From the IMG/VR virus record IMGVR_UViG_3300009506_000002, positions 32,001-96,000 of that record: 64,000 nucleotides of DNA. One strand, written 5' to 3'. The position numbers were made by a program, and so were the translations under genes. The DNA comes from a virus. Shown piece after piece: positions 4,607 through 64,000 of the stretch; the first letter of the stretch is position 1, and every line of letters starts with the position of its first letter. The notes below the pieces were generated by a model, which was not told the DNA's origin, searched no databases, and was given only the letters and a program-made list of their open reading frames with translations.

Positions 4607-6103
4607 CTATATTTTGATTCGCTTCAAAGAGAATTCAAACTGCTCTCTGTTGTAGTAGTCAACGCGCACCAAGAAGTGCTCCATCGCATAGTTCTTATGT
4701 CTCTTCCAAGTCAAATCATCAGCAATATCGTACAGGATGAATGAATCCTTTTCTGAATTGATTCTCAAGCCGCGGCCAATCGACTGGAGCGTGCGGATTT
4801 TTGACTTCGATGGTGATGCAAAGATGCCCCAGTGCAGGTTCTTGATTGAAACGCCAGTAGAGAACGTTCCAAACGAAGCTACAATGATCGAGTCCTTTTC
4901 CTTTTCGACCCAATGACGGATTTGTTCGCGCTGGTCAGCAGGTACTGAACCGTCAACGAAGTGAACAGTGCGGTTAGGGTCAATATCTTTGATCCGCTTG
5001 TAGATATCCTTACCATGCTCGATGTTGTTGAACAGGATCAGTCCGTTCTGAGTTTGAGCCAGAGCCAGTTTCGCAATGAAGTCTGTTCGACGCGGGTGTT
5101 TGATCAGCCACTTAACCTCATCTTGATACTTGGCCTTCTTCATGAACTGCTTTTCCTCATCCGTGTAGATGAGAGACAGCGCCTTGATATTCAAACGCGC
5201 TACCTTCTTTCTGTCCATCAATTCCTTGGTTGTGATGGTTCTCTTGACAGGGCCGAGCAATCCCTCGATCACAAGGCGAGAGGTCTTTGAATCGTCAAGC
5301 GTACCAGTGAGTCCGATCTTATAAGGGCATTCAGTCATCTTCTCACAGATTCCGCGCAGCGATTCAGATGTTGCCAAGTGAACCTCGTCAATCATCAGGG
5401 TGCCGAACTTCTCAAAGTAGCCCTTGTGCTTACGGAAAATAGACTGCCATGTTGAAACGTAGATACCGCACTCAGAATCCTTTTCGCGGCCACCCATGAT
5501 CATGTGAACCTCGTCATCTGCTGTCCAGTGGACGTGAGATGAGTAGTCCGCCATGTCACCTGCCATCTGCGCAACCAGTCCGGTTGTTGGCACGACGACA
5601 AGTACCTTTTTGCCTGGGCGAGTGAGACGCAGCCAGCGCGCCAGCGCATAGATCATCAGAGACTTACCCGAAGAAGTAGGAGACAGCAAGATGCATCGCT
5701 TGTATTTGAGCGCGCACCAGATGCCGAAGAGCTGGTAGTCATGTGCCTCAATCTTTTCGCCATTTGAGTGGACGTTGAGAGTTTCAAGGAACTTGACCAC
5801 ATCCTCAGGCTTGACGTTTGTTTGTGGCATAACGTCATCATCGATGTGGATGCTGTATTTGTGTTGCTCCGCGAACTGCTTGACGTATGAAGTCAATCCA
5901 GAGTAGAGCTCGCGATTGCGAATTGAGAACAGGTGGATCTTACCATCCCACATCTTGTTCTTGAACTTTGGCATGAAGCGGTAGCCAGGAACGAAGAATG
6001 TGAAGAACTCGTCCAGTGAGAATGCAATGTGTAGCTCGCACTCAATCCAAACGTAGACGTCGTCAACCCTATGTACGGTGATATCTGCTTTTCTTTCAGC
6101 CAT
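4607..6103 (-). CDS. uvsW: SF2 RNA-DNA/DNA helicase
   Basis: SPTSSGKS, IDEVH, QSIGRGLR; N-terminal WDGKIHLF. Confidence 0.95.
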   Translation of the reverse strand: MAERKADITVHRVDDVYVWIECELHIAFSLDEFFTFFVPGYRFMPKFKNKMWDGKIHLFSIRNRELYSGLTSYVKQFAEQHKYSIHIDDDVMPQTNVKPEDVVKFLETLNVHSNGEKIEAHDYQLFGIWCALKYKRCILLSPTSSGKSLMIYALARWLRLTRPGKKVLVVVPTTGLVAQMAGDMADYSSHVHWTADDEVHMIMGGREKDSECGIYVSTWQSIFRKHKGYFEKFGTLMIDEVHLATSESLRGICEKMTECPYKIGLTGTLDDSKTSRLVIEGLLGPVKRTITTKELMDRKKVARLNIKALSLIYTDEEKQFMKKAKYQDEVKWLIKHPRRTDFIAKLALAQTQNGLILFNNIEHGKDIYKRIKDIDPNRTVHFVDGSVPADQREQIRHWVEKEKDSIIVASFGTFSTGVSIKNLHWGIFASPSKSKIRTLQSIGRGLRINSEKDSFILYDIADDLTWKRHKNYAMEHFLVRVDYYNREQFEFSLKRIKI

Positions 6104-7206: not shown

Positions 7207-8478
7207 TTAAACGCCAGTTACCAGGAAGTCACGGTAGTAGTCGTTCTGACCAGCAATACCTGATACGAATGGGTTGTATGCGATTGCATAACGGGTCTTC
7301 ATACCGATACGTGGCTGGAAGTCTTCCTCGCCGACGGCCTTCATCATCTGCAGAGGTACGTATGGGCAGTAGAACATACCAGCGTCGTAGACGTTAGCGC
7401 CCTTGTAACCCACAGTCACGAAGTCTGCAGCAGCATACGGATCGACGTACACCTTGAATCGACCACCCAGGATACCCGCGAAGGTTGCTCCTACGAAGTC
7501 ACTGTTCAGAGTGCCGCTGATTGCAGCGGTGTCGAGCTTGGTAGCCTGCTCGAGTGCAGCCATGACGATTGGCGAACATACAATGAAGTTACCAACACCA
7601 CGGCGGGTAGTGGTAGCAATCAAAGATGCTTCACGGACGATCTGCATGTACAGGTTCTTGTACTTTTCAATCTCCCAACGACCATCAGTGTCGTCGTTTG
7701 CGCCACCGGTCATGTCGAATGTACCAGCTACGTTGGTGTTCTGCGCGCCAGTACGAGCCTGAGAACGCATGGTTGCGATGATTTCACGGTTGATTTCACC
7801 CACAACTTCGGTTGACAGGATGTTTGCCAGTTCGGCTTCTGCATCCATACCGTGGATTGCCTTCAGGTCCTGGGCCAGTTCAATGGTGTACTTAGCCTTC
7901 AGAGCACGAGTGCCAGCTTCGACTGACTTCTTATCGATGCTGAATGACATCTCAGCCCATGGGTTGGTCTGAGCGATGTTGGTTACATCGGTGAAGGCAG
8001 TACGCGCGGTAGTGCCATCAGTTGTACCGTCACCTTGGATGTCAACGCCAAGTGCTTCACCTGCCGCAGTTGTCATTGCTGCGCCTGCGCCGTTACCAGA
8101 GTGGTTGACGTCTGGTGCCGAAGTACCGAACGCTTCTGCGCCAGTCTGTGGGTCGCCAGTGTAGCGAGCACGCATTGCAAAGATGAGGCCGGTTGGGCCG
8201 CTCATTGGCTGAACACCGACGATGTCATGCGCAATCAGCGATGGCATGGTACGGCGAACCATTGAGATCAGGATAGGGTCAAAGCCCTGTCCGCCACCAG
8301 AAACCATGTTGCCGGTGTTTACGCCCTCTTCAAGGGCAGCTTTTTCTGTGTTTTCAAGCAGACGGATGGTTGTGTTTCGAACGTCGCGGTTCTTGATCTC
8401 ATCAACGCCTTCAGCAGTGATGACAGGTTCCCACTTCTGCTTTACTTCTTCAGACAATAGTGGCTGATTAGTAGTCAT
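7207..8478 (-). CDS. gp23: Major capsid protein
   Basis: MVRRTMPSLIAHDIVGVQPMSGPTGLIFAMR, ELAQDLKAIHG, FYCPYVPL, FQPRIGMKTRY. Confidence 0.98.
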   Translation of the reverse strand: MTTNQPLLSEEVKQKWEPVITAEGVDEIKNRDVRNTTIRLLENTEKAALEEGVNTGNMVSGGGQGFDPILISMVRRTMPSLIAHDIVGVQPMSGPTGLIFAMRARYTGDPQTGAEAFGTSAPDVNHSGNGAGAAMTTAAGEALGVDIQGDGTTDGTTARTAFTDVTNIAQTNPWAEMSFSIDKKSVEAGTRALKAKYTIELAQDLKAIHGMDAEAELANILSTEVVGEINREIIATMRSQARTGAQNTNVAGTFDMTGGANDDTDGRWEIEKYKNLYMQIVREASLIATTTRRGVGNFIVCSPIVMAALEQATKLDTAAISGTLNSDFVGATFAGILGGRFKVYVDPYAAADFVTVGYKGANVYDAGMFYCPYVPLQMMKAVGEEDFQPRIGMKTRYAIAYNPFVSGIAGQNDYYRDFLVTGV

Positions 8479-52089: not shown

Positions 52090-52269
52090 CTAGGTTGCTT
52101 CCAGCGCTTCTGGAGGAACGTCGGTCATTGGTTGAACACTTACCAACTCATCTGCTATCATCTGTGGGATAGCTTTTCGTAGACGTGCGATCTCCTCAGG
52201 ATCGATTTTGCCGTGAGGATCGAAATGGCTATATCCGCCATTGATACGATCTTCGTGGTTGTCAGCCAT
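52090..52269 (-). CDS. 59-aa protein carrying a major-capsid (Gol-region)-like peptide
   Basis: RLRKAIPQMIADELVSVQPMT versus gp23 MVRRTMPSLIAHDIVGVQPMS. Confidence 0.65.
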   Translation of the reverse strand: MADNHEDRINGGYSHFDPHGKIDPEEIARLRKAIPQMIADELVSVQPMTDVPPEALEAT

Positions 52270-52606
52270 TGAGGATCTGCACTTCGCCTTCGCGAACGTC
52301 TTCTTGATCAGTGACAACTTTCTTGCCATCAGACTCGCCGACAACTTCACGCTCGACCACCGACTTCGGACCCTTGTAGTCCTTCAGGTCTTTTGTGGTG
52401 ATGATGCCTGAACCGTGTACCATTGCGTCATCCATGTCTTTCTCCTTTTCCGTAACTTCAATCCTGAATGTTGCTCCAGGGTGAGGGTGTGGCATTGGCT
52501 CAACTCCCTCAATAATCTCCGCAAAGCTGAAAGGTTGCAGAGGAGGCATGACCCATAAATTGACAGGAGGGAAGCGTAGGTCAGGCCAGTTGATCCTTAA
52601 TCCCAC
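52262..52606 (-). CDS. Hypothetical protein with weaker capsid-like segment
   Basis: FAEIIEGVEPMPHPHPGATFRI; AAGGAG RBS. Confidence 0.55.
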   Translation of the reverse strand: MGLRINWPDLRFPPVNLWVMPPLQPFSFAEIIEGVEPMPHPHPGATFRIEVTEKEKDMDDAMVHGSGIITTKDLKDYKGPKSVVEREVVGESDGKKVVTDQEDVREGEVQILNG

Positions 52607-54854: not shown

Positions 54855-55061
54855 TCATGAAAATGTATAAAAGCAATCGAGATCTTCATCAACGTAGAAC
54901 CCTAAGCTGTCAAGCAGGGCAATCTCCTCAGATGAATATTGGTTCGGGTTACCGACGTACATGACATCGTGCTCGAAGCTGTAATCACACTTGCCTTCTT
55001 TCTCGGCGATGATTGCCAGCGCGGCGACAAGTCTTTGAATGAGTGAAAGTTCTGCACTCAT
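54855..55061 (-). CDS. Hypothetical protein
   Basis: ATGA overlap with the ligase stop. Confidence 0.6.
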   Translation of the reverse strand: MSAELSLIQRLVAALAIIAEKEGKCDYSFEHDVMYVGNPNQYSSEEIALLDSLGFYVDEDLDCFYTFS

Positions 55062-56077
55062 AGCTTGTCGGTCTCCGCGAACCAAAATACACGCGCAGAG
55101 TTGGAGATGTGCTTGCCGACATCAGCCGCTGTAAAGCCATTCTCCTCCATCAGGGCCTGCTCTTCGTCAAGGATGTCGTTGACAACCCAACGCAGGAAAT
55201 CACCTGTGTTCTTACGCTCGATCTCGATACCATGCTGGCGCATGACATCAAGACCCTGATTCAGACGATTCTTGGTGACAGTAGCAGCCACAAACTCATG
55301 GATAGAGTTCATCTTCTCTACGTCAACCGCAGCAAGCGTCTTGACCTTTGAGGAAGAGTGGCGCTCGTCCTTGACCTTGAACCAGAACTGTGGGTCACGG
55401 TAGCCGTAGGACTCACACTTCCAGACGATGCCTTCGCCGGCGCCTTCCTTGTTGAAGTGCGCGCCGACAGGGCACTGGTCACCGACCTTTTGAGTCAACT
55501 CTGCAAGCTGGGCAGTAGCCAGCTCTGGACGATTGAAGTCAATCTCAATCTTGAATGTAGGGAACTGGCGGATGTGGTAGATGCCCATATCGTTGATCTT
55601 CTGAGTCCACTCAGGATCAGAAGTGACATCCTCAATTGAAGGGTTGCTCCAAGTGTCATCATCCAGGTCGCGGTAGGCGAAGATGACGAACATCTTGTCG
55701 AGGCCTGTGATTGCCACACCCTTCTGAATGTTGCCACCGCACCACTCACCGTAGACTGCCGTGCTGTATGATGCGCCATCCTTCAGCTCTGCAGGGAGAG
55801 CATCAATGAAAGCAGCAAAGCCAGCATTGTCGTCCTCTGGAGTGATGACACGCTCACGCGACTGTGCGTGAAGGTGGCCGCCAGCATCGAAGACTACCGC
55901 AGCGTTCGTGCCGTGCAGCTTGACGCTACCCTCAAAGACGAGAGTAGGATAGTCAGATGTATGTTCGTAGATTGGATTACCTGCGGCGTCTTTGCCTTTG
56001 AAGTCATGATGGAGCTGAACAGATCTTACAACGTCACGGAACTGACGGATTTTGGGGAATTTAATCATTTGGGTCAT
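55058..56077 (-). CDS. RNA ligase (Rnl2-like nucleotidyltransferase)
   Basis: Motif I KLHGTN, YGEWCG, FVIF, GEGIVW, FKVK. Confidence 0.85.
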   Translation of the reverse strand: MTQMIKFPKIRQFRDVVRSVQLHHDFKGKDAAGNPIYEHTSDYPTLVFEGSVKLHGTNAAVVFDAGGHLHAQSRERVITPEDDNAGFAAFIDALPAELKDGASYSTAVYGEWCGGNIQKGVAITGLDKMFVIFAYRDLDDDTWSNPSIEDVTSDPEWTQKINDMGIYHIRQFPTFKIEIDFNRPELATAQLAELTQKVGDQCPVGAHFNKEGAGEGIVWKCESYGYRDPQFWFKVKDERHSSSKVKTLAAVDVEKMNSIHEFVAATVTKNRLNQGLDVMRQHGIEIERKNTGDFLRWVVNDILDEEQALMEENGFTAADVGKHISNSARVFWFAETDKL

Positions 56078-56378
56078 AATCACCTCTGGTTAAGATAACA
56101 GTCAAGTTTTTGGCGATGTTCAATGCGCCAACAGGGTTCGCTGAATGAACACCGAAGCTAAAGCACTTTGGGATGAAATTTCCCATTTCGAGATCAGTTT
56201 CGATCATCCAGTTTACCACAATCATAGCGGTGTCATCTCCGCCCAGGTCATGGTCAAAACTGATATAGTCAGGGCAGCCTTCACTAAGCATGTAGGAAAT
56301 GGCTTCTGCAGAACTACGCAATATAGCGTCGAACACACCCTTTGGGTCACGATCATCGTCAATGTAAATTCGAATCAT
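56061..56378 (-). CDS. Cyclic-phosphate-processing receiver-like domain protein
   Basis: IYIDDDR.P, ISFDHDLG, VHSANPVG. Confidence 0.8.
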   Translation of the reverse strand: MIRIYIDDDRDPKGVFDAILRSSAEAISYMLSEGCPDYISFDHDLGGDDTAMIVVNWMIETDLEMGNFIPKCFSFGVHSANPVGALNIAKNLTVILTRGDYDPND

Positions 56379-56381
56379 GAT

Positions 56382-56424
56382 CAACTCCTGCGTGCTGCAA
56401 TACTACACGAACACGCAGGAGTTG
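56382..56424. repeat. 13-bp perfect inverted repeat covering promoter and RBS
   Basis: CAACTCCTGCGTG (56382-56394) / CACGCAGGAGTTG (56412-56424). Confidence 0.9.
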
Positions 56425-56428
56425 TCAA
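56400..56428 (-). promoter_or_regulatory. sigma70-type promoter inside the inverted repeat
   Basis: TTGACA-17-TAGTAT. Confidence 0.75.
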
Positions 56429-56432
56429 GTTT

Positions 56433-56735
56433 TTATTCGTCGTAGATGAACAGAACATCATCTTCAGTGATGACGGTACACTCCTTGTCGTCCCACGGTC
56501 CTGTCTTGCCAGCGTAGCCAGTGAACAGGATCCGGTCACCAACCTTGACAGACATCTCCTTGCGGGTAGTGCCATCAGGAAGGAAAGCGCCCGGGCCAAC
56601 TGCTACGATGGTGCCGGACTTTGGTGGATGCTCATGCTTCGGGGTATCCGGAAGGATGATACCGCCATCAGAGACGGTCTGCACCGGATCGAGAATCAGA
56701 GCAATACGGTCGAGGATGGGTCTTACGCGCGCCAT
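56433..56735 (-). CDS. groES: Co-chaperonin GroES (bacterial-like cpn10)
   Basis: RPILDRI, GGIILPD, GTIVAVGPG, VKVGDRILF. Confidence 0.92.
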   Translation of the reverse strand: MARVRPILDRIALILDPVQTVSDGGIILPDTPKHEHPPKSGTIVAVGPGAFLPDGTTRKEMSVKVGDRILFTGYAGKTGPWDDKECTVITEDDVLFIYDE

Positions 56736-57022
56736 CAGACAGTAAGTACCTTACCGAAATGCTTGGCATAGGCGTCTTCGATGAACTTCATCTCATTGAT
56801 GATCGTTGCATGGAACATCACCTGCGCAGACTTGAGCGGCAGGATGCGGGTTTCGCCCTTGGTCAGGTTGAAGTATGGCGCATAAGGAACCAGCTCCATT
56901 CCGCCCTTGCCATCAGGCATGCCGACAACCGGGTTCTCGATGACTACCTGTTCAGCAGTCTCTTCGACCAGGTACCCGACGAACTCTTCGCCGGTGATCA
57001 GTTTGAAAATTCGAATACTCAT
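56735..57022 (-). CDS. Sm-like fold protein
   Basis: IFKLITGEEFVG..VIENP..PYAPY pattern. Confidence 0.6.
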   Translation of the reverse strand: MSIRIFKLITGEEFVGYLVEETAEQVVIENPVVGMPDGKGGMELVPYAPYFNLTKGETRILPLKSAQVMFHATIINEMKFIEDAYAKHFGKVLTV

Positions 57023-57051
57023 TCGTTCTCCTTGTGGATGTAAAGGTACTA

Positions 57052-57080
57052 ATTGTACAGGTTTTGGGTTAGCTTGTCAA
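57052..57080 (-). promoter_or_regulatory. sigma70-type promoter
   Basis: TTGACA-17-TACAAT; AAGGAG. Confidence 0.8.
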
Positions 57081-57087
57081 GCTCTTT

Positions 57088-57300
57088 TTAGCTGGCAGCA
57101 ATCCAAGCCCAACCGATAAAGGCAACAATGAACCAGCGCCACGGGCGATAGACTCGCTGATAGCCCTTGCACATATCGCTGATCTGCTTCGGGCTGCCCT
57201 CATAGCCCCAGCCGAGTGTGGAATGAAGCATGAACGCAATAGAGCCGAATACAGCCAAGCCCCAGGCGATGATGTTCAGAAATGTGTTAAGCGTTTCCAT
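57088..57300 (-). CDS. Small membrane protein
   Basis: Two hydrophobic segments; AGGAGG RBS. Confidence 0.65.
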   Translation of the reverse strand: METLNTFLNIIAWGLAVFGSIAFMLHSTLGWGYEGSPKQISDMCKGYQRVYRPWRWFIVAFIGWAWIAAS

Positions 57301-57757
57301 GATAATCCTCCTTCATGATAACAATAGGGTCACCGCCATTGGAATCAAGAATGGCGTCGTTCTGTCCGTCACGCTGAATCGGGATACCCGCAGTTTGCAG
57401 CATATCGAGTTTGATGATTGCCACGCGATCCTGTTCTGACAGGAGAGGCGCGCCACACTCAGGGCAGCGATCATAGAGGTGATCAGCCATGTTCGCAAGC
57501 GTATCAGTCTGATAGCCGCATCCCTCGGTGTCACAGTAGAGCAATCCCTGCAGTGCCGGCGGCGTGAACAGCTCTTCGAGATATGAGCCAGTGATGTCGT
57601 TATCCCAGCCTAGCTCCTCATCGATCTCTGCGCCAGTTACAGCGTCGAACTTCCATGGGCCACAATAGATGAAGCCGTTGGCAATTTCAGACACCTTAAG
57701 GCGCATCTTTGTGCCAGCCAGGTTTCGTGTTACTTGTTGACCTACTTCGATAGTCAT
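57287..57757 (-). CDS. Hypothetical protein with zinc ribbon
   Basis: CDTEGC...CPEC. Confidence 0.65.
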   Translation of the reverse strand: MTIEVGQQVTRNLAGTKMRLKVSEIANGFIYCGPWKFDAVTGAEIDEELGWDNDITGSYLEELFTPPALQGLLYCDTEGCGYQTDTLANMADHLYDRCPECGAPLLSEQDRVAIIKLDMLQTAGIPIQRDGQNDAILDSNGGDPIVIMKEDYHGNA

Positions 57758-57759
57758 GA

Positions 57760-57984
57760 TTATTTGCTCCTACGCGGTTGATTGCAATCTGATGATACCC
57801 ACAGCAAAAAGCCTGGAAGCATGAAACCCCAACCAAACAAGGTATCGGTATGGTAACCTCCGCCAGTGATGGCAGAGTAGACGGCGTTGGCTCCTGCTAT
57901 GATGAAGCCAAAGAAACACCACACAAGGAGCAAACGCTCAAAGTATGAGGTCTCGTCATTGTAGCGCTTGAAAGGATTCTTCAT
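57760..57984 (-). CDS. Small membrane protein
   Basis: Two hydrophobic segments. Confidence 0.6.
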   Translation of the reverse strand: MKNPFKRYNDETSYFERLLLVWCFFGFIIAGANAVYSAITGGGYHTDTLFGWGFMLPGFLLWVSSDCNQPRRSK

Positions 57985-58133
57985 GAGAAGGACTTCACAA
58001 TGATATAGCCTAGAACACCGGAAGTGGTCACGCTAGATGCGAGAAACGATTTCAATGTTGGGGCTCCACTAAACAGACACCAGGTTGTGTAACCTGAGCC
58101 TGTGAGAATAAATCCTAATGCGACTGCGTCCAT
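57981..58133 (-). CDS. 50-aa membrane peptide (not in ORF track)
   Basis: AAAGGAG RBS; MDAVALGFILTGSGYTTWCLF...; ATGA overlap downstream. Confidence 0.6.
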   Translation of the reverse strand: MDAVALGFILTGSGYTTWCLFSGAPTLKSFLASSVTTSGVLGYIIVKSFS

Positions 58134-58167
58134 TACTTATAACTCCTTTCACTCACAGATTAACGTA

Positions 58168-58196
58168 AGTCTACACGAAAACGGGGCCGTTGTCAA
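58168..58196 (-). promoter_or_regulatory. Early promoter with 12-bp dyad
   Basis: TTGACA-17-TAGACT; AACGG-CC-CCGTT. Confidence 0.85.
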
Positions 58197-58546
58197 GTCC
58201 TGTTCCCATCAAGGGCTTTGTCTACAATGTCAGCGATTGCAGCCATGCCGCGCACAGAGTCGCCGTTGTACAGCATCAGAGTCTCTTCAATGCGGATGAG
58301 GGCTCGAAGGTTCTTGTCACGGTTTCTGGTGAAAGCATGTGCCTTCGCGTGCGCTTCAATGATATGCTTGCCCTTACGGCGGTCGCTGGTATAGTCGAGT
58401 ATCTTATCTCCCCACTTCACAGTCCAGTCGCCGTCAACCAGCTCCCCAAACTCCACGGAGACAACGATGTCATCCACCACACCAAACAGGTCGATGGTCG
58501 AGTTCTGACTTGCCTCTTCCCAGTTTGTCCAGATTACGTTCATCAT
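58193..58546 (-). CDS. Hypothetical protein
   Basis: GAGGAG RBS. Confidence 0.6.
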   Translation of the reverse strand: MMNVIWTNWEEASQNSTIDLFGVVDDIVVSVEFGELVDGDWTVKWGDKILDYTSDRRKGKHIIEAHAKAHAFTRNRDKNLRALIRIEETLMLYNGDSVRGMAAIADIVDKALDGNRT

Positions 58547-58699
58547 GTTTTCTTCTCCTCTTGTCTGCGCATGGTGTCAACGTGCGAGAACCACAACCCA
58601 TATCGATGCCACGTACAAAGCGGGTAAGGTTGCGCGCGTATGTGTTCATCTCGGGCATATACCATGCCTGTTTTGCCATGCGTGAGGCTGCTGCCGCGA

Positions 58700-58794
58700 G
58701 ACTAATTAGAGTTTGTCCTTATTGTGGTAAACGCGGCAAAGGTGGCAACATGACTAGGTATCATTTTGAGAACTGCTCTTTAGTCCAAGTTTAA
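58700..58794 (+). pseudogene. C-terminal remnant of a homing-endonuclease-like gene
   Basis: RVCPYCGKRGKGGNMTRYHFENC zinc-finger tail; opposite strand to neighbours; no catalytic domain. Confidence 0.55.
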
Positions 58795-58996
58795 TTCGCT
58801 TGACTTTGAAGCCACCCTCTTCGAACAGCACAACGAGCTGCTCCATTGGGATGTCAGTCACGACGTCGTAGTCATTAGGAACCTTGCCACTCAGAAGGTC
58901 GCGAACTGCGCCACCGACAATGAAGTTGTTGTCGGAGTGGGCATTCAGCACCATCAAGAAGGGCAGCAATTTGAAAGGGGCATGGTTTTCGAACAT
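58754..58996 (-). pseudogene. Truncated tRNA nucleotidyltransferase (CCA-adding / poly(A) polymerase head)
   Basis: FIVGGAVRDLL..PNDYDVVT; similarity ends about 65 codons in. Confidence 0.8.
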
Positions 58997-59028
58997 AATC
59001 AACTCCTGTTCACTCACTCAATAGTGAA

Positions 59029-59057
59029 AGTCTACACGAAACGGAACCTTTTGTCAA
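59029..59057 (-). promoter_or_regulatory. Early promoter with 12-bp dyad
   Basis: TTGACA-17-TAGACT; AAAGG-TT-CCGTT. Confidence 0.85.
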
Positions 59058-59257
59058 ACGATTTTTCTCAAATACTGGTAGGCTTCGAGCAGCTTCTTCT
59101 CAGAGAGATCGGTAAGCACTCGCAGGTTCCATTCCCAGCCAGATTTGCTGAAACTGCCAAGATCGCAGATAAGTGGGTTTATTGATTGGGTATAGGACGG
59201 AGAGCACGACTTGACCAGCTTTAGCAGGTCGCCCTTGTCGAGCTCTACCGGCACCAT
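59054..59257 (-). CDS. Hypothetical protein
   Basis: Operon packing; stop in the -35 box. Confidence 0.6.
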   Translation of the reverse strand: MVPVELDKGDLLKLVKSCSPSYTQSINPLICDLGSFSKSGWEWNLRVLTDLSEKKLLEAYQYLRKIV

Positions 59258-59258
59258 T

Positions 59259-59564
59259 TTACAGTGCGAACTTCTCGTTCAGGATGGCGATGACTTCTGG
59301 AGTAAGATCGCTCTTACCATAGTCACCAACACGATAGCTCGGGGTCTCTGTGCCATAAGAAAGGATGACTGACTTCACGACATCATCGATCTGGCGCTTG
59401 CCAAACTCTTTGATATAGTCGGTGATCTGGTTGTCATCGAGGTGGCAAACGTCACAGATCAAGAAGACTGCAATGTCTTCGACAGTGAAATACTGCTCGG
59501 GGAAGCGAATTTGGAAGCCCTGCTTCACCTGATCGTTTGCTGTTTTAACTTTAGTTGGTTTCAT
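59259..59564 (-). CDS. Hypothetical protein
   Basis: Start revised to ATG 59564 (AGGAG-6-ATG). Confidence 0.65.
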   Translation of the reverse strand: MKPTKVKTANDQVKQGFQIRFPEQYFTVEDIAVFLICDVCHLDDNQITDYIKEFGKRQIDDVVKSVILSYGTETPSYRVGDYGKSDLTPEVIAILNEKFAL

Positions 59565-59596
59565 GAATAACTCCTGTTCACTCACTCAATGGTGAT

Positions 59597-59625
59597 ATTC
59601 TAGCACAAAAGGTGCCGTTTGTCAA
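59597..59625 (-). promoter_or_regulatory. Early promoter with 12-bp dyad
   Basis: TTGACA-17-TAGAAT; AACGG-CA-CCTTT. Confidence 0.85.
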
Positions 59626-59882
59626 GCGGTATCTTTCATCAGCTCCAGGCATTGGTCAATCAGTGCAGGTACGGCAGCAATAGCAAGAACATCGCCTTCA
59701 ATGCCCTCATAGCTGTCGGTCACCTGAATCATGCGATCACCTAGTGATGAACACTCGGGCACATAGAAGTACCCGTCCTCGTCAGGCGTGGTGTCAATAG
59801 GTCCTCTATTGCCTACCCACTCCCAGCGCCCTTCCGTAATACCGTCACGTAGGGCTTCGAGCTGCTCGCGCGTGAATGTCAC
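59622..59882 (-). CDS. Hypothetical protein (TxGxW...AIAA.P family)
   Basis: GTGA overlap start; ITEGRWEW...AIAAVPALID. Confidence 0.6.
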   Translation of the reverse strand: MTFTREQLEALRDGITEGRWEWVGNRGPIDTTPDEDGYFYVPECSSLGDRMIQVTDSYEGIEGDVLAIAAVPALIDQCLELMKDTA

Positions 59883-60055
59883 TTCTGTTCTGCCTTCCTG
59901 CGCGCGCGTGCCATTTTGCGGCGGCAGTGTGAACAGTATCCAGCATCGAAACGTTTCTTGTTGTCCTTGATGTACTGGCGCAGGATCTCGGTCTCGCAAC
60001 CTTCAGTCTTGCACATAACGAATCCTGGCATTGGAACGGGAATCTTGTTGATCAT
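59879..60055 (-). CDS. 58-aa zinc-finger protein (not in ORF track)
   Basis: AGGAG RBS; CKTEGC...YCSHC, basic tail. Confidence 0.6.
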   Translation of the reverse strand: MINKIPVPMPGFVMCKTEGCETEILRQYIKDNKKRFDAGYCSHCRRKMARARRKAEQK

Positions 60056-60210
60056 TCAGAATCTCCTAATACTTGGTTGACAATGTGGCACGGATTGTCC
60101 TTGCCAGCACGAATATCTTTCAGAGCTTGTACGAGCTTTTCGTTGCGCTCATCAAGAGCGACTATCGCACCATTCAGCGCGCGGATGATGACGTCCTTAT
60201 CGTATTCCAT
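60052..60210 (-). CDS. 52-aa hypothetical protein (not in ORF track)
   Basis: GGAGG RBS; overlaps on both sides; MEYDKDVIIRALNG... Confidence 0.6.
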   Translation of the reverse strand: MEYDKDVIIRALNGAIVALDERNEKLVQALKDIRAGKDNPCHIVNQVLGDSE

Positions 60211-60437
60211 CAGTCCTCCATGTACTTGAGGAACTGGCGTGGGACCTCGATCATCTTGTTGTCACTTGGGATGTTACCGCCTGCACCAATGCGCAGGTCC
60301 TGCAGGAACAGGTCAAGGTTTTCACGCAGACGGCTTGCTCCGCCATCGTTTGATGAACCAGAGTATCCTGCGTCTGATTCCAGCTTATCCGCTGCACGCA
60401 AGACCCTGATCTTTATTCCATATACCGATTGAATCAT
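60210..60437 (-). CDS. Hypothetical protein
   Basis: Start revised to ATG 60437 (AGGAG). Confidence 0.6.
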   Translation of the reverse strand: MIQSVYGIKIRVLRAADKLESDAGYSGSSNDGGASRLRENLDLFLQDLRIGAGGNIPSDNKMIEVPRQFLKYMED

Positions 60438-60456
60438 AATGTACTCTCCTATTGTT

Positions 60457-60690
60457 CTACTGAATGTTGCTCTCGGGCAGTCTCTCGATGTCGATGAACT
60501 CGATCTGCTCGGGGTTGAATACACGGGTGATGGTGCTATCACCCATCTCAACCTCAAAGGAAATGCTTGGCAGGTCACGCATCGAAGCGATCCGAGCCAG
60601 GTACTTCTCTTTGTAGTATTTCTCGGACACTGGCGCAACCGTATGAGATTCACCTGCCAGTGTGACGACGGTAATCAAGATCATGCTCAC
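60457..60690 (-). CDS. Hypothetical protein
   Basis: Operon packing. Confidence 0.55.
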   Translation of the reverse strand: MSMILITVVTLAGESHTVAPVSEKYYKEKYLARIASMRDLPSISFEVEMGDSTITRVFNPEQIEFIDIERLPESNIQ

Positions 60691-60924
60691 TTATTCACCC
60701 CACTGCAGGCGACGCTTGCGAACAAGCTCGATTGACGCAATTGATGGGATGTAGAAGATGTAGTTGCTGCCATGCTTCTGAAAGCGCATGTAGTCCAGTG
60801 ATCCTGGGTCGAGCATCTTCTGATACATCGCATCTGCGTGATCTTCTTCCTGCAACTGTGAACGGAAAGTCTTTCCGTCAACTGTGCGAACTACGATTTG
60901 AAACTTTTTGACGATACGAACCAT
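60691..60924 (-). CDS. Hypothetical protein
   Basis: AGGAGG RBS; TAATG overlap. Confidence 0.6.
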   Translation of the reverse strand: MVRIVKKFQIVVRTVDGKTFRSQLQEEDHADAMYQKMLDPGSLDYMRFQKHGSNYIFYIPSIASIELVRKRRLQWGE

Positions 60925-61475
60925 TATTGGTTGTCCTCCTTCTTGATCAGGTCGTCGACACTTTCCCACTTGCTTTCAGTCTCATTCCAGACCTGTCGCA
61001 GGTACCTTGCGCCGTTTGTGGTGATGTACTCACCTTCACTCCAGGTGTCACCGCGATCGATCAGCTCGATGCCGCGGATTGAAGTATTTTCCCCGCTTTC
61101 ACCTGGGTGCTTGTGTTTGATTTCCAGTACACATCGGATGCGCAGGCCCCCTCGTCCAGTGAATCGGACAATGCTGCCTACCTTCAGGTTCTCGCGTGCC
61201 CAACGTTCACGGCGCTGGTCAGCATCCTGCTTCTTCTGGCGAGTCTCTTTGCGGATACGGTCGTCATCAGGACGAAGCATTATTGCCAGAGCGCCAACAT
61301 CGAGGTTGATCTCCAGAATGCGCTTCTCGAGCTTGCGCTTTTCCTCAAGAAGAGTCTTTTGTTGCGCACGCCAATCGGTTACGTTACGACCAAGTCTGCC
61401 AGTGGCAATGACTTCTGCGCAGCGCTCTTCTTTCAGGCGCTTCTCGCGCTCGTATGGTGATTCCCAACGTCTCAT
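60924..61475 (-). CDS. Hypothetical protein (coiled coil plus SH3-like C-domain)
   Basis: LKVGSIVRF motif after a charged helix. Confidence 0.6.
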   Translation of the reverse strand: MRRWESPYEREKRLKEERCAEVIATGRLGRNVTDWRAQQKTLLEEKRKLEKRILEINLDVGALAIMLRPDDDRIRKETRQKKQDADQRRERWARENLKVGSIVRFTGRGGLRIRCVLEIKHKHPGESGENTSIRGIELIDRGDTWSEGEYITTNGARYLRQVWNETESKWESVDDLIKKEDNQ

Positions 61476-61478
61476 GAT

Positions 61479-61856
61479 TTACTCTACCTCTCCGGTGTAG
61501 AATCCAATGCCTACAATTTTCTGAATCTCGACGACACTGTCGTTCAATTTGCCAATGCTCGAAAGGCCAGTGAACATAGACTTGTCGTTTTCAATGATTG
61601 ATTTAATCAATGCTCCCGCAGGGGTATCGAGAATTTTGATACTTGCGATGATATTGCCATCGTCATCCATGCGCATCGACTCAACGATGTGAGATGCTCT
61701 TGATGGATCATCTGTTAAACCATCAAAGGTGCAGACAGCCGGACCCTTGAACTCTTCGACTGCTTTGCGCAGTGTCTCCTCAGGATAAATGCGACCATAC
61801 GTTGACGTTGGAACGCCTGCCTTTGGAAGATCAATATTGTATTCTTTTGTCATCAT
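61479..61856 (-). CDS. Truncated, apparently inactive prohead-protease (gp21) paralog
   Basis: GRIYPEETL, RASHIV, KILDTPAG.LIK, GLSSIG align to gp21; no ELxHP His, no DxVxDPS. Confidence 0.75.
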   Translation of the reverse strand: MMTKEYNIDLPKAGVPTSTYGRIYPEETLRKAVEEFKGPAVCTFDGLTDDPSRASHIVESMRMDDDGNIIASIKILDTPAGALIKSIIENDKSMFTGLSSIGKLNDSVVEIQKIVGIGFYTGEVE

Positions 61857-62293
61857 TTACCCCAGTCGAGTTTCAGTGGTTCAACATAAACCAGATTTGC
61901 TTCCAAAGCAGGAATATTTATTGGCTTGCCATCAGGCCGCCAGTCTCCAACATCGTAACTCAAGGTCACGTGCGGGACGAAGTTGTCATACGCATGAGGG
62001 TAGCCTCTGCTTAACCATTCCTCATGGCGGCGCTGAATTCCAGGACTATCGAGTACCAGCACAAGGACATTGCCCGATTCAGTAGGCCATACCTCAAGAT
62101 ACCACGGCAGCGCAGTGAAATTGACTACTTCCCGGATATGTGGCGCTTCCGTGCGCTCCGTACAGTAAAGTACAGTGCTATGAAGCATTCCTTTAGGAAC
62201 CGGGTTAGGAACCTGAATTTCTCGCGCAAAGCGATGTAAGTTACCCATGGATCGGCCATTGTATTTCACTCCTACGTAGACGCCGTCAGTCAT
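61853..62293 (-). CDS. acb1: Anti-CBASS 2H phosphoesterase (T4 gp57B/Acb1 homolog)
   Basis: VPNPVP, HSTVLY, LEVW, LVLVLDS, PHVTLSY, EPLKLDW match T4 Acb1 as recalled. Confidence 0.92.
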   Translation of the reverse strand: MTDGVYVGVKYNGRSMGNLHRFAREIQVPNPVPKGMLHSTVLYCTERTEAPHIREVVNFTALPWYLEVWPTESGNVLVLVLDSPGIQRRHEEWLSRGYPHAYDNFVPHVTLSYDVGDWRPDGKPINIPALEANLVYVEPLKLDWGK

Positions 62294-62314
62294 GACGCGC
62301 TCTCAACATTGTTG

Positions 62315-62343
62315 ATTCTAGCACGAACGGCTCCTTTTGTCAA
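62315..62343 (-). promoter_or_regulatory. Early promoter with 12-bp dyad, for the acb1 operon
   Basis: TTGACA-17-TAGAAT; AAAGG-AG-CCGTT. Confidence 0.85.
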
Positions 62344-62353
62344 GTCTTTTTCT

Positions 62354-62587
62354 TCATCTGCCAGCTTGTAGCCACCGATAACCTGCGCATAACTCACAGA
62401 GAGCGGGAGCGGTTTGACCCCATATCAGTCTCACCGCAGAAGTGCCCCATCCACGGATGCGAGCAACAAAAGCATCCCGATCATCGTCGGCGACCATCTC
62501 GTTGTTCGCATCCCAGATGTAGCCACATTCATACCGAAACGGTGGCTTGTAAAGGGCAAGTGCTGCCGCTCGAAGTTCGTTTGTCAT
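62354..62587 (-). CDS. Hypothetical protein, possibly truncated
   Basis: PPFRYECGYIWDA..MVAD..RIRGWG then an atypical tail. Confidence 0.5.
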   Translation of the reverse strand: MTNELRAAALALYKPPFRYECGYIWDANNEMVADDDRDAFVARIRGWGTSAVRLIWGQTAPALCELCAGYRWLQAGR

Positions 62588-63723
62588 ACCAGCTCTCCTG
62601 CTTTAACCTTCCAGTCCTCGAACTTAGACTGCTTGCCGAGGTGGTTCTTCAGTTGGTCAACCACAAAGAGGAACACGTCCTCATCTGGGCGATCAAACAG
62701 ACGGAACACGATGTTGCTGAAGGCAGCAGCACGATACTCGGACAGAGCAAAGTCCTTCTTGGTAGAGAACTTGGCCTTGGTAGCCACAGCCCAGGCACCT
62801 ACTGCATCAATCAGCACATGCAGGTCACGGGCAAACTCGCCAAAGTAGACACGGTCAGACTCTTCGATGTATGGCATGATGTCATCAATCGAAGCAGTCG
62901 CGTGGCAGTCAAGAACGAGCTGCGCGGTGATGTGTGGGTGGTTGAACATCTCCTTGATCTTGTGGCGCTTGACGTACCACGGAGACTTGATCTTAACCGG
63001 GCCAGTCTCAACCAGCTCGACTACGACACCCTCATCGTTAGACATGTTCTCAACAACCTTCATGATGTCAACCAGAGTGGTAGACGGACCGAAAGCGAAG
63101 TGAGGAACAGTCTCTACGCCGTACTCGACGGCCTTGCGGAATACAGAACCCTTCTTGTGCTCGTATGCGCCAGTCTTGTTATCGCGTACAGCAATCAGAC
63201 GCAGGAATGCGCGGTCATACTGCACCACGATCTTAGACGGGATGAAGTTCGGGTCGTGGAACTCAAAGATTGGAGTCAGGCCAGCGAAGATGCACTCCGC
63301 AACAAACGCCTTCATGCCAGTGGTCTGAGTCAGTGGGTGATGCTCGAGGTAGCGCTCAAACTCCTCTGCGACACGCTTAGTGCCCCAGATGATCTTACCA
63401 TTGCACAGGAATGGTGCAACCATTGCGCCGTCGAGCTTAGTGGTCACAGACACGATGCCCTCGTTGACGAGGTCGCCAATCTGGGTGTGCTCCTTCTCGT
63501 TGACGTTGAAGAACTTGTGCAGCGGACGACGGATGACCTTGCCAGTTACGTTGTCGAAGATGATACCACGGCACTCGAGCGCCTCTGGTGAATCAAACGT
63601 ATCTGGGAAGGCAACGTTGTAGGCTACGACAGTGTAACCATCGCGCACGTTGACGCCGATCTCATCCTTGTGAGCGACAGCAGCCAGAAACTCGTCTTTG
63701 TTAGTGATGTATGGCAGAATCAT
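62584..63723 (-). CDS. rnlA: RNA ligase 1
   Basis: LECRGIIF, RPLHKFFN, KLDGAM, EGVV, KIKSPWY. Confidence 0.9.
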   Translation of the reverse strand: MILPYITNKDEFLAAVAHKDEIGVNVRDGYTVVAYNVAFPDTFDSPEALECRGIIFDNVTGKVIRRPLHKFFNVNEKEHTQIGDLVNEGIVSVTTKLDGAMVAPFLCNGKIIWGTKRVAEEFERYLEHHPLTQTTGMKAFVAECIFAGLTPIFEFHDPNFIPSKIVVQYDRAFLRLIAVRDNKTGAYEHKKGSVFRKAVEYGVETVPHFAFGPSTTLVDIMKVVENMSNDEGVVVELVETGPVKIKSPWYVKRHKIKEMFNHPHITAQLVLDCHATASIDDIMPYIEESDRVYFGEFARDLHVLIDAVGAWAVATKAKFSTKKDFALSEYRAAAFSNIVFRLFDRPDEDVFLFVVDQLKNHLGKQSKFEDWKVKAGELV

Positions 63724-63892: not shown

Positions 63893-64000
63893 GCACTTTC
63901 TGGCGCGTCGAGGTTCCAAGGATATTTGACGATCTCGTCGGTGATGACGTTGTGGAAATAGTCAGGAATGAAATCTGACTTGGCTCGCAGGTCAATGGTT
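63889..64000 (-). CDS. C-terminus of a gene entering from outside the window, possibly a phosphoribosyltransferase
   Basis: ...FIPDYF...IVKYPW... Confidence 0.4.
   Translation of the reverse strand, partial: TIDLRAKSDFIPDYFHNVITDEIVKYPWNLDAPESA

Follow-up and report, generated by a model that had tools for sequence, protein, structure and literature searches.

The stretch of DNA analysed here (the window) comprises 64,000 nucleotides of IMG/VR record IMGVR_UViG_3300009506_000002. The source phage is an uncultured T4-like virus of 142 kb with terminal repeats, and its major capsid protein (MCP) is approximately 48–50 per cent identical to those of Methylophilales phage Melnitz, Pelagibacter phage HTVC008M, and Stenotrophomonas phage DLP_6. 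The full 64-kb stretch is contained in a single sequencing run, from a marine-sediment metagenome, which is probably where the phage comes from; no RNA run is listed as containing the locus described below. On the minus strand of the window, a strong sigma-70-type promoter is followed by acb1, by a gene for a short paralog of the prohead protease gp21 (hereafter, mini-gp21), and by a 183-aa gene. The coordinates of these and other features are collected in Table 1.

Table 1. Features of the acb1/mini-gp21 locus and related features of the window.
Feature	Position	Strand	Remarks
mini-gp21, 125 aa	61479–61856	-	Prohead-protease core, predicted to be catalytically dead
True prohead protease gp21, 216 aa	9537–10187	-	Intact His/Ser/Asp; late head-gene cluster
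acb1, 2H-family cyclic-nucleotide phosphodiesterase, 146 aa	61853–62293	-	T4 57B ortholog; PF23474
ATGA stop/start overlap	61853–61856	-	mini-gp21 ATG (61856–61854) over acb1 TGA (61855–61853)
Sigma-70-type promoter of the acb1 operon	62343–62315	-	TTGACA, 17 nt, TG-TAGAAT; 11/12 consensus matches, TG extension
Seven-codon ORF MLRARHD	62309–62286	-	Overlaps acb1 start; ATG 6 nt after the -10 box
183-aa gene	60924–61475	-	Starts 3 nt past the mini-gp21 stop; same transcription unit as acb1
Next early promoter	59597–59625	-	TTGACA-N16-18-TANAAT pattern; downstream bound of the acb1 transcription unit
rnlA-type RNA ligase	62584–63723	-	
PolyA_pol head-domain fragment, short	58754–59017	-	
cREC_REC cyclic-phosphate-processing domain	56061–56384	-	E-value 5e-19
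Second RNA ligase	55058–56083	-	
Two paralogs of ~163 aa	63889–64383, 69083–69574		Window numbering continued past its end at 64000; 95889–96383 and 101083–101574 in genome C1
86-aa ORF, early region	52090–52350	-	Resembles part of the MCP
MCP	7207–8478		

The product of acb1 matches the Pfam family PF23474 with 101.8 bits (cut-off of 27; E-value 3.5e-29), and its residues 3–145 cover positions 1–142 of the 144 in the profile. Along its full length it is 39 per cent identical to T4 57B, and both 2H catalytic motifs are found in the translation as LHSTV (H-S-T) and PHVTL (H-V-T). By these sequence criteria the 146-aa protein is a genuine Acb1, for which cleavage of CBASS nucleotides is predicted; T4 Acb1 destroys the cyclic-nucleotide signals of CBASS. 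The window gene shares with T4 gene 57B its PF23474 membership and both HxT motifs, but it heads its own early operon adjoining rnlA, whereas gene 57B lies between 57A and ipI in T4 and is not known to have a gp21-like gene beside it.

Genes of RNA-repair type surround the acb1 operon (window 55058–63723, minus strand), and two mutually related proteins (35 per cent identity) of no known family are encoded immediately ahead of the rnlA promoter region. We considered whether acb1 could be a mere RNA-repair LigT, given the rnlA, cREC, and Rnl2-like ligase genes nearby, and rejected this assignment because the protein scores much higher with the Acb1 profile than with the generic 2H profile.

The product of the second gene is detectably homologous to gp21. 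It is 28 per cent identical to the window's own gp21 (E-value 5e-10), which in turn matches Peptidase_S77 with an E-value of 2e-46 (158 bits), and it matches phrog_207, annotated as 'head maturation protease', with an E-value of 1.4e-9. No Pfam family was matched by mini-gp21 at E-values up to 0.1, so the gathering score of PF03420 is not reached. An AlphaFold2 model of mini-gp21, built on 62 family sequences, has a pLDDT of 90.8, and its best match in the PDB is the T4 gp21 structure 5JBL (TMq 0.78, rmsd 2.4 Å), followed by herpesvirus proteases. A sequence search of the PDB with mini-gp21 returned chance matches only, and 5JBL was found by the fold search alone. As modeled, mini-gp21 has the gp21/herpesvirus-protease fold.

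Catalysis in gp21 relies on a triad, named in PMC5694885, that comprises the ELNHP His, the leading Ser of GVSSRG, and the VDxV Asp; in 5JBL the first two are replaced by Ala (H-to-A and S-to-A). In mini-gp21, the ELNHP loop is deleted, Gly occupies both the catalytic Ser and the Asp columns, the DPSAP tail is absent, and approximately 20 N-terminal and 70 C-terminal residues of gp21 are missing. The motifs GRIYP, RASH, and LDTPAG are kept, and NGRIYP, SH, and LDTPxG are common to mini-gp21 and cyanophage-type gp21s. A preliminary description of the window, made from its letters and open reading frames, had reported a 125-aa gp21 paralog that keeps the fold motifs and lacks the ELxHP His and the DxVxDPS segment. 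The alignment, the PHROG match, and the fold agree with that report, and they support the view that mini-gp21 is a truncated gp21 paralog that would be catalytically dead. Compared to T4 gp21 (MEROPS S77, PF03420, 5JBL), mini-gp21 is alike in its core fold and sequence homology, but it lacks the His/Ser/Asp, both termini, and a Pfam match, and is located in an early operon instead of the late head cluster. Co-folding of gp21 with mini-gp21, run without controls, gave a score of 0.00.

The exact pattern TTGACA-N16-18-TANAAT occurs at seven sites in the window, with 0.09 expected. Because of this excess, and because all seven sites are on the minus strand, we regard them as real early-type promoters. 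As near-consensus TTGACA-N17-TAnAAT sites they span window positions 2662–63892 on that strand, and a TTGAG element 8–13 nt downstream of the -10 box is common to the three whose box reads TAGAAT. T4-type late promoters (TATAAATA) also occur in the window, where five of them (at positions that include 12877, 9513, and 8534) precede the portal, scaffold, and MCP genes and two more late genes. The window scan detected no such late promoter near 61–62 kb; mini-gp21 is situated there in an early sigma-70-type unit, outside of the late head cluster and approximately 50 kb from the head genes (portal, gp21, scaffold, and MCP). Judged by its promoter motifs, the acb1/mini-gp21 operon is predicted to be early.

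The stop codon of acb1 overlaps the start codon of mini-gp21 as ATGA, as the preliminary description had stated and as both the ORF coordinates and the sequence confirm, which supports predicted translational coupling of the two genes under the early-type promoter. The same description had named one promoter for acb1 and the overlapping paralog. The promoter is indeed placed to drive acb1, but its unit is longer than described and continues from 62343 to the promoter at 59625 and includes the 183-aa gene, which has no Pfam or PHROG match, and several small ORFs. The seven-codon ORF near +1, which had been suggested to deliver ribosomes to acb1, is present and overlaps the acb1 start. Its ATG sits inside the TTGAG element of the TAGAAT promoters, and at the other six promoters no ATG occurs at so short a distance. 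Those six are followed by leaders of 22–39 nt to the first long ORF, with clear GGAG-type ribosome-binding sites, whereas the acb1 leader is short and has a weak GAGAG site. The seven-codon ORF is probably coincidental, and a role in ribosome delivery is without support.

Short gp21-like proteins form a family well beyond this phage. A phmmer search with mini-gp21 against 1.84 billion representatives returned 184 matches, most of them 106–165 aa long and alignable from end to end. In an alignment of 137 short proteins with 32 true gp21s, the catalytic columns hold H, S, and D in all 32 true proteases. Among the short proteins, His does not rank with the 12 most frequent residues of its column, Ser is found in 19 and Asp in 49, and the three residues are never found together (0/137). 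NGRIYP, SH, LDTPxG, and GxG are kept across the family, GxSSRG and DPSAP are lost, and the gp21 termini are absent in every member. The ESM Atlas yielded 18 feature matches to short viral proteins without a Pfam family and nine with Peptidase_S77; among the matches listed, the Atlas clusters are virus-only, with more than 50 members each. A structure search of viral models found look-alikes of 140–146 aa in Yersinia phage fHe-Yen9-04, Klebsiella phage Eowyn, and Pseudomonas phage Psa21, and a 154-aa member is encoded in addition to the true protease in Serratia phage BF and related Erwinia phages. These comparisons describe a large, phage-only family of predicted pseudo-enzymes, 105–165 aa in length.

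Other searches mostly recovered true proteases. Word-based homolog searches with mini-gp21 and Acb1 returned the window's own proteins only. Alignment-driven scans of loci in IMG/VR and metagenomes gave almost exclusively true gp21, with just two short members (L054 and L094), and two degenerate DNA patterns added two more (L174 and L178) among what were otherwise true proteases.

In an unrooted maximum likelihood tree of 74 short and 32 true proteins, reconstructed from 136 columns, a single branch splits the two groups (SH-aLRT support of 95), and the mini-gp21 family is apparently of single origin. The closest relative of the window protein is the short protein P0002 (46 per cent identity, compared to 28 per cent for the window's own gp21), and the two are neighbors on the tree. 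Because the tree places the window protein with P0002 and away from its own gp21, mini-gp21 is no private duplicate; its sequence marks it as a member of an old and widespread family rather than as a recent copy. It also resembles the family in length, in end-to-end alignment, in its position in the separate clade, and in having lost the triad while keeping the fold motifs.

Inactive-looking protease paralogs of this kind have been known since 2017. Truncated 'cryptic protease' paralogs were described in SPN3US (gp117), 201phi2-1 (gp206), PhiPA3 (gp143), and Erwinia phages (Ali et al. 2017; PMC5694885). Like mini-gp21, they are small (~136–145 aa), diverged, presumably inactive, and encoded apart from the true protease. 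They were identified by way of the S80 (phiKZ-type) protease, however, and Ser and Asp are retained in some of them, whereas the family described here is nearest to S77 (T4-type) and is found in T4-like and jumbo phages. The window protein thus adds one member to a kind of protein that is already recognized but uncharacterised.

The preliminary description had proposed co-occurrence of acb1 and the paralog across phages as a check. Among the genomes and contexts covered, recurrent linkage is absent, and the two genes are linked here and, loosely, in Serratia phage BF only. Most mini-gp21 members are found in genomes or contigs without acb1. The Acb1 profile has no match in a complete 371-kb genome that encodes two mini-gp21 copies and a true protease (G016), in a 200-kb genome that is 92 per cent complete and carries mini-gp21 (G046), or in the whole records G047, G001, and G030, and among the neighbors tested there is no acb1 near mini-gp21 in at least six further contexts. 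Conversely, approximately 1,500 cultured phages carry Acb1, and in searches with family members, the Escherichia records and most other cultured ones showed nothing but the true gp21. Acb2-type sponges (PF13876) were not found in five genomes, in a search that had no positive control.

The genes around family members vary. In L004, mini-gp21 follows a sigma-like gene and a 127-aa gene and precedes an Mre11-like gene; L089 and L090/L094 are small-gene arrays with a SLOG-domain gene and a radical-SAM-like gene; a GNAT gene is nearby in L054 and an HNH gene in L178; and in G030, mini-gp21 lies 3 kb from the true protease. The 200-kb phage of L174 encodes NADAR (5021–5539; E-value 2e-51) 1.5 kb from mini-gp21. 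NADAR proteins are an established means of counter-defence against toxins that ADP-ribosylate. Two diverged mini-gp21 genes (124 and 133 aa) stand in tandem in L088 (428–1328), and a Dda/PIF1-type helicase gene comes after them.

In Serratia phage BF, the gene for Acb1 (BF_0110, 56 bits) lies 3.8 kb upstream of mini-gp21 (BF_0116), co-oriented and six genes apart in a 357-kb jumbo phage genome, for which the chance expectation is roughly 2–4 per cent. BF_0116 (154 aa, annotated as 'capsid maturation protease' and with homologs in Eneladusvirus) is, like the window protein, a short family member and a second gp21-like place in its genome. Unlike the window protein, it neither adjoins nor couples with acb1, as genes for Sir2-like, cREC-Nudix, and PhoH proteins lie in between. 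Because the window was selected for the adjacency of the two genes, BF is the only independent test of linkage among genomes known to hold both, and its single case is suggestive. The cREC domain encoded between the two BF genes is fused to Nudix, and a cREC domain is also encoded near the window acb1. On the 1,972-bp contig of assembly GCA_044344285.1 that encodes P0002, a 150-aa ORF that overlaps the P0002 start could be acb1.

Across 80 loci retrieved through rnlA, neither mini-gp21 nor a homolog of the window acb1 was present. The nearest relative of the window's rnlA (63 per cent identity, locus L202) is flanked by unrelated genes at the corresponding position, so that, relative to this locus, acb1 and mini-gp21 come and go as a pair. 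Because of these two observations, we interpret acb1 and mini-gp21 as a variable cassette.

What, then, might mini-gp21 do? The preliminary description had seen in acb1 and the paralog a two-layer anti-CBASS module, on the premise that prohead proteases activate CBASS. The premise is borne out by the literature: T4 gp21 activity suffices to activate CBASS by cutting a loop of the CD-NTase, an effect that Acb proteins mask (PMC12991175), the head protease is the trigger to which many CBASS systems respond (2026 preprint), and prohead-protease mutations permit phage escape from type I CBASS. Because the head protease triggers CBASS, a large family of dead protease look-alikes in phage accessory regions is a natural candidate for a novel class of counter-defence. 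Under a two-layer mechanism, mini-gp21 would keep the protease from activating the CD-NTase, whether it shielded the loop or held free gp21 inactive in the cytoplasm, and Acb1 would degrade the residual signal. The predicted coupling of the two genes under one early promoter, their joint presence or absence relative to L202, and their proximity in BF are in line with such a mechanism. Against it stand the mini-gp21 genes without Acb1 in G016, G046, and the further contexts, and the many cultured acb1 phages with true gp21 only; the adjacency in the window, having been the reason for its selection, is no evidence. Moreover, the GxSSRG motif, which forms the oxyanion/S1 site for canonical substrate binding, is degenerate across the family, which speaks against a substrate trap of the classical kind on that loop of the CD-NTase. 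We regard the two-layer mechanism as rather unlikely, and the claim of a dedicated two-gene module finds no support, although a genuine-looking Acb1, a neighboring gp21 paralog that is predicted to be dead, the coupling of their genes, and the premise from the literature all do. A joint anti-CBASS function of the two genes is possible. A broader version, in which mini-gp21s are early dead look-alikes of the head protease that stop 'protease tripwire' immunity (e.g. CD-NTase loop cleavage in CBASS) by occupying the sensor or restraining free gp21, and are here paired with Acb1 as a second layer, is speculative and in our judgment unlikely. If true, it would provide the first anti-CBASS factor that acts upstream of signal synthesis and, with it, a simple model, open to testing, of how a phage evades immunity before the nucleotide signal arises; should the link to CBASS be false, the family remains a widespread phage pseudo-enzyme. 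The locus is the cleanest natural pairing of the family with a known anti-CBASS gene, which makes it a promising subject for experiments but does not amount to evidence of a module.

The partner of mini-gp21 could instead be the protease itself. T4 gp21 is a pentamer that is kept inactive until assembly (PMC9958956), and a protein that retains the whole core fold in its model, together with the fold motifs of cyanophage-type gp21s, and that is predicted to be made ahead of gp21 could regulate or poison prohead-protease oligomers, by delaying the phage's own gp21 or by sabotaging that of a co-infecting rival. The two or three copies in some phages (e.g. the L088 tandem pair and G016) are as expected of arms-race genes. 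Poisoning one's own protease would be costly, however, and we consider this role distinctly improbable. It is very improbable that mini-gp21 is what is left of a protease duplicate in decay, without function and beside acb1 only by accident: truncation and the loss of all catalytic residues would fit a pseudogene, and the label 'cryptic proteases' of Ali et al. 2017 (PMC5694885) was given to such paralogs, but the ORF is uninterrupted and closely coupled to acb1, the fold is predicted with confidence, a clade of its own is formed by hundreds of diverged homologs that agree in length and conserve the motifs, and the nearest relatives of mini-gp21 are short proteins and not the window's own gp21.

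The reading that we favor, and hold to be probable, is that mini-gp21 is a non-catalytic accessory or counter-defence factor, which came to adjoin acb1 through a shared mobile cassette. The locus would be the head of an early accessory operon, in which the first gene encodes an Acb1 that looks functional and the second a coupled pseudo-enzyme consisting of the gp21 beta-barrel core minus the N-terminal propeptide region, the C-terminal third, and all three catalytic residues. This protein is predicted to be produced before the late head proteins. A role in binding, as opposed to catalysis, seems most likely because the triad is absent, expression is predicted to be early, and the gp21 termini are missing. 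Because those termini are missing family-wide, mini-gp21 is presumably not built into proheads like gp21 and would have no part in head assembly. Elsewhere, too, family members appear to occupy the variable early or accessory parts of large phage genomes.

Mini-gp21 is not the only 'mini-copy' of a late head protein in the early region of the window. A second one, the 86-aa ORF, resembles residues 54–93 of the phage's own MCP and includes the conserved IPxxIAxxxVxVQPM stretch, which we take to be the Gol region of T4 gp23, the trigger of the Lit protease. A comparable arrangement is seen in L005 (4957–6459), where a 152-aa mini-gp21 comes right after a shortened capsid-protein-like gene (347 aa) that matches the VQPM region and the C-terminal part of the MCP. 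This pair is followed by a 145-aa gene and an RNase H gene and lies among replication and nucleotide genes rather than head genes.
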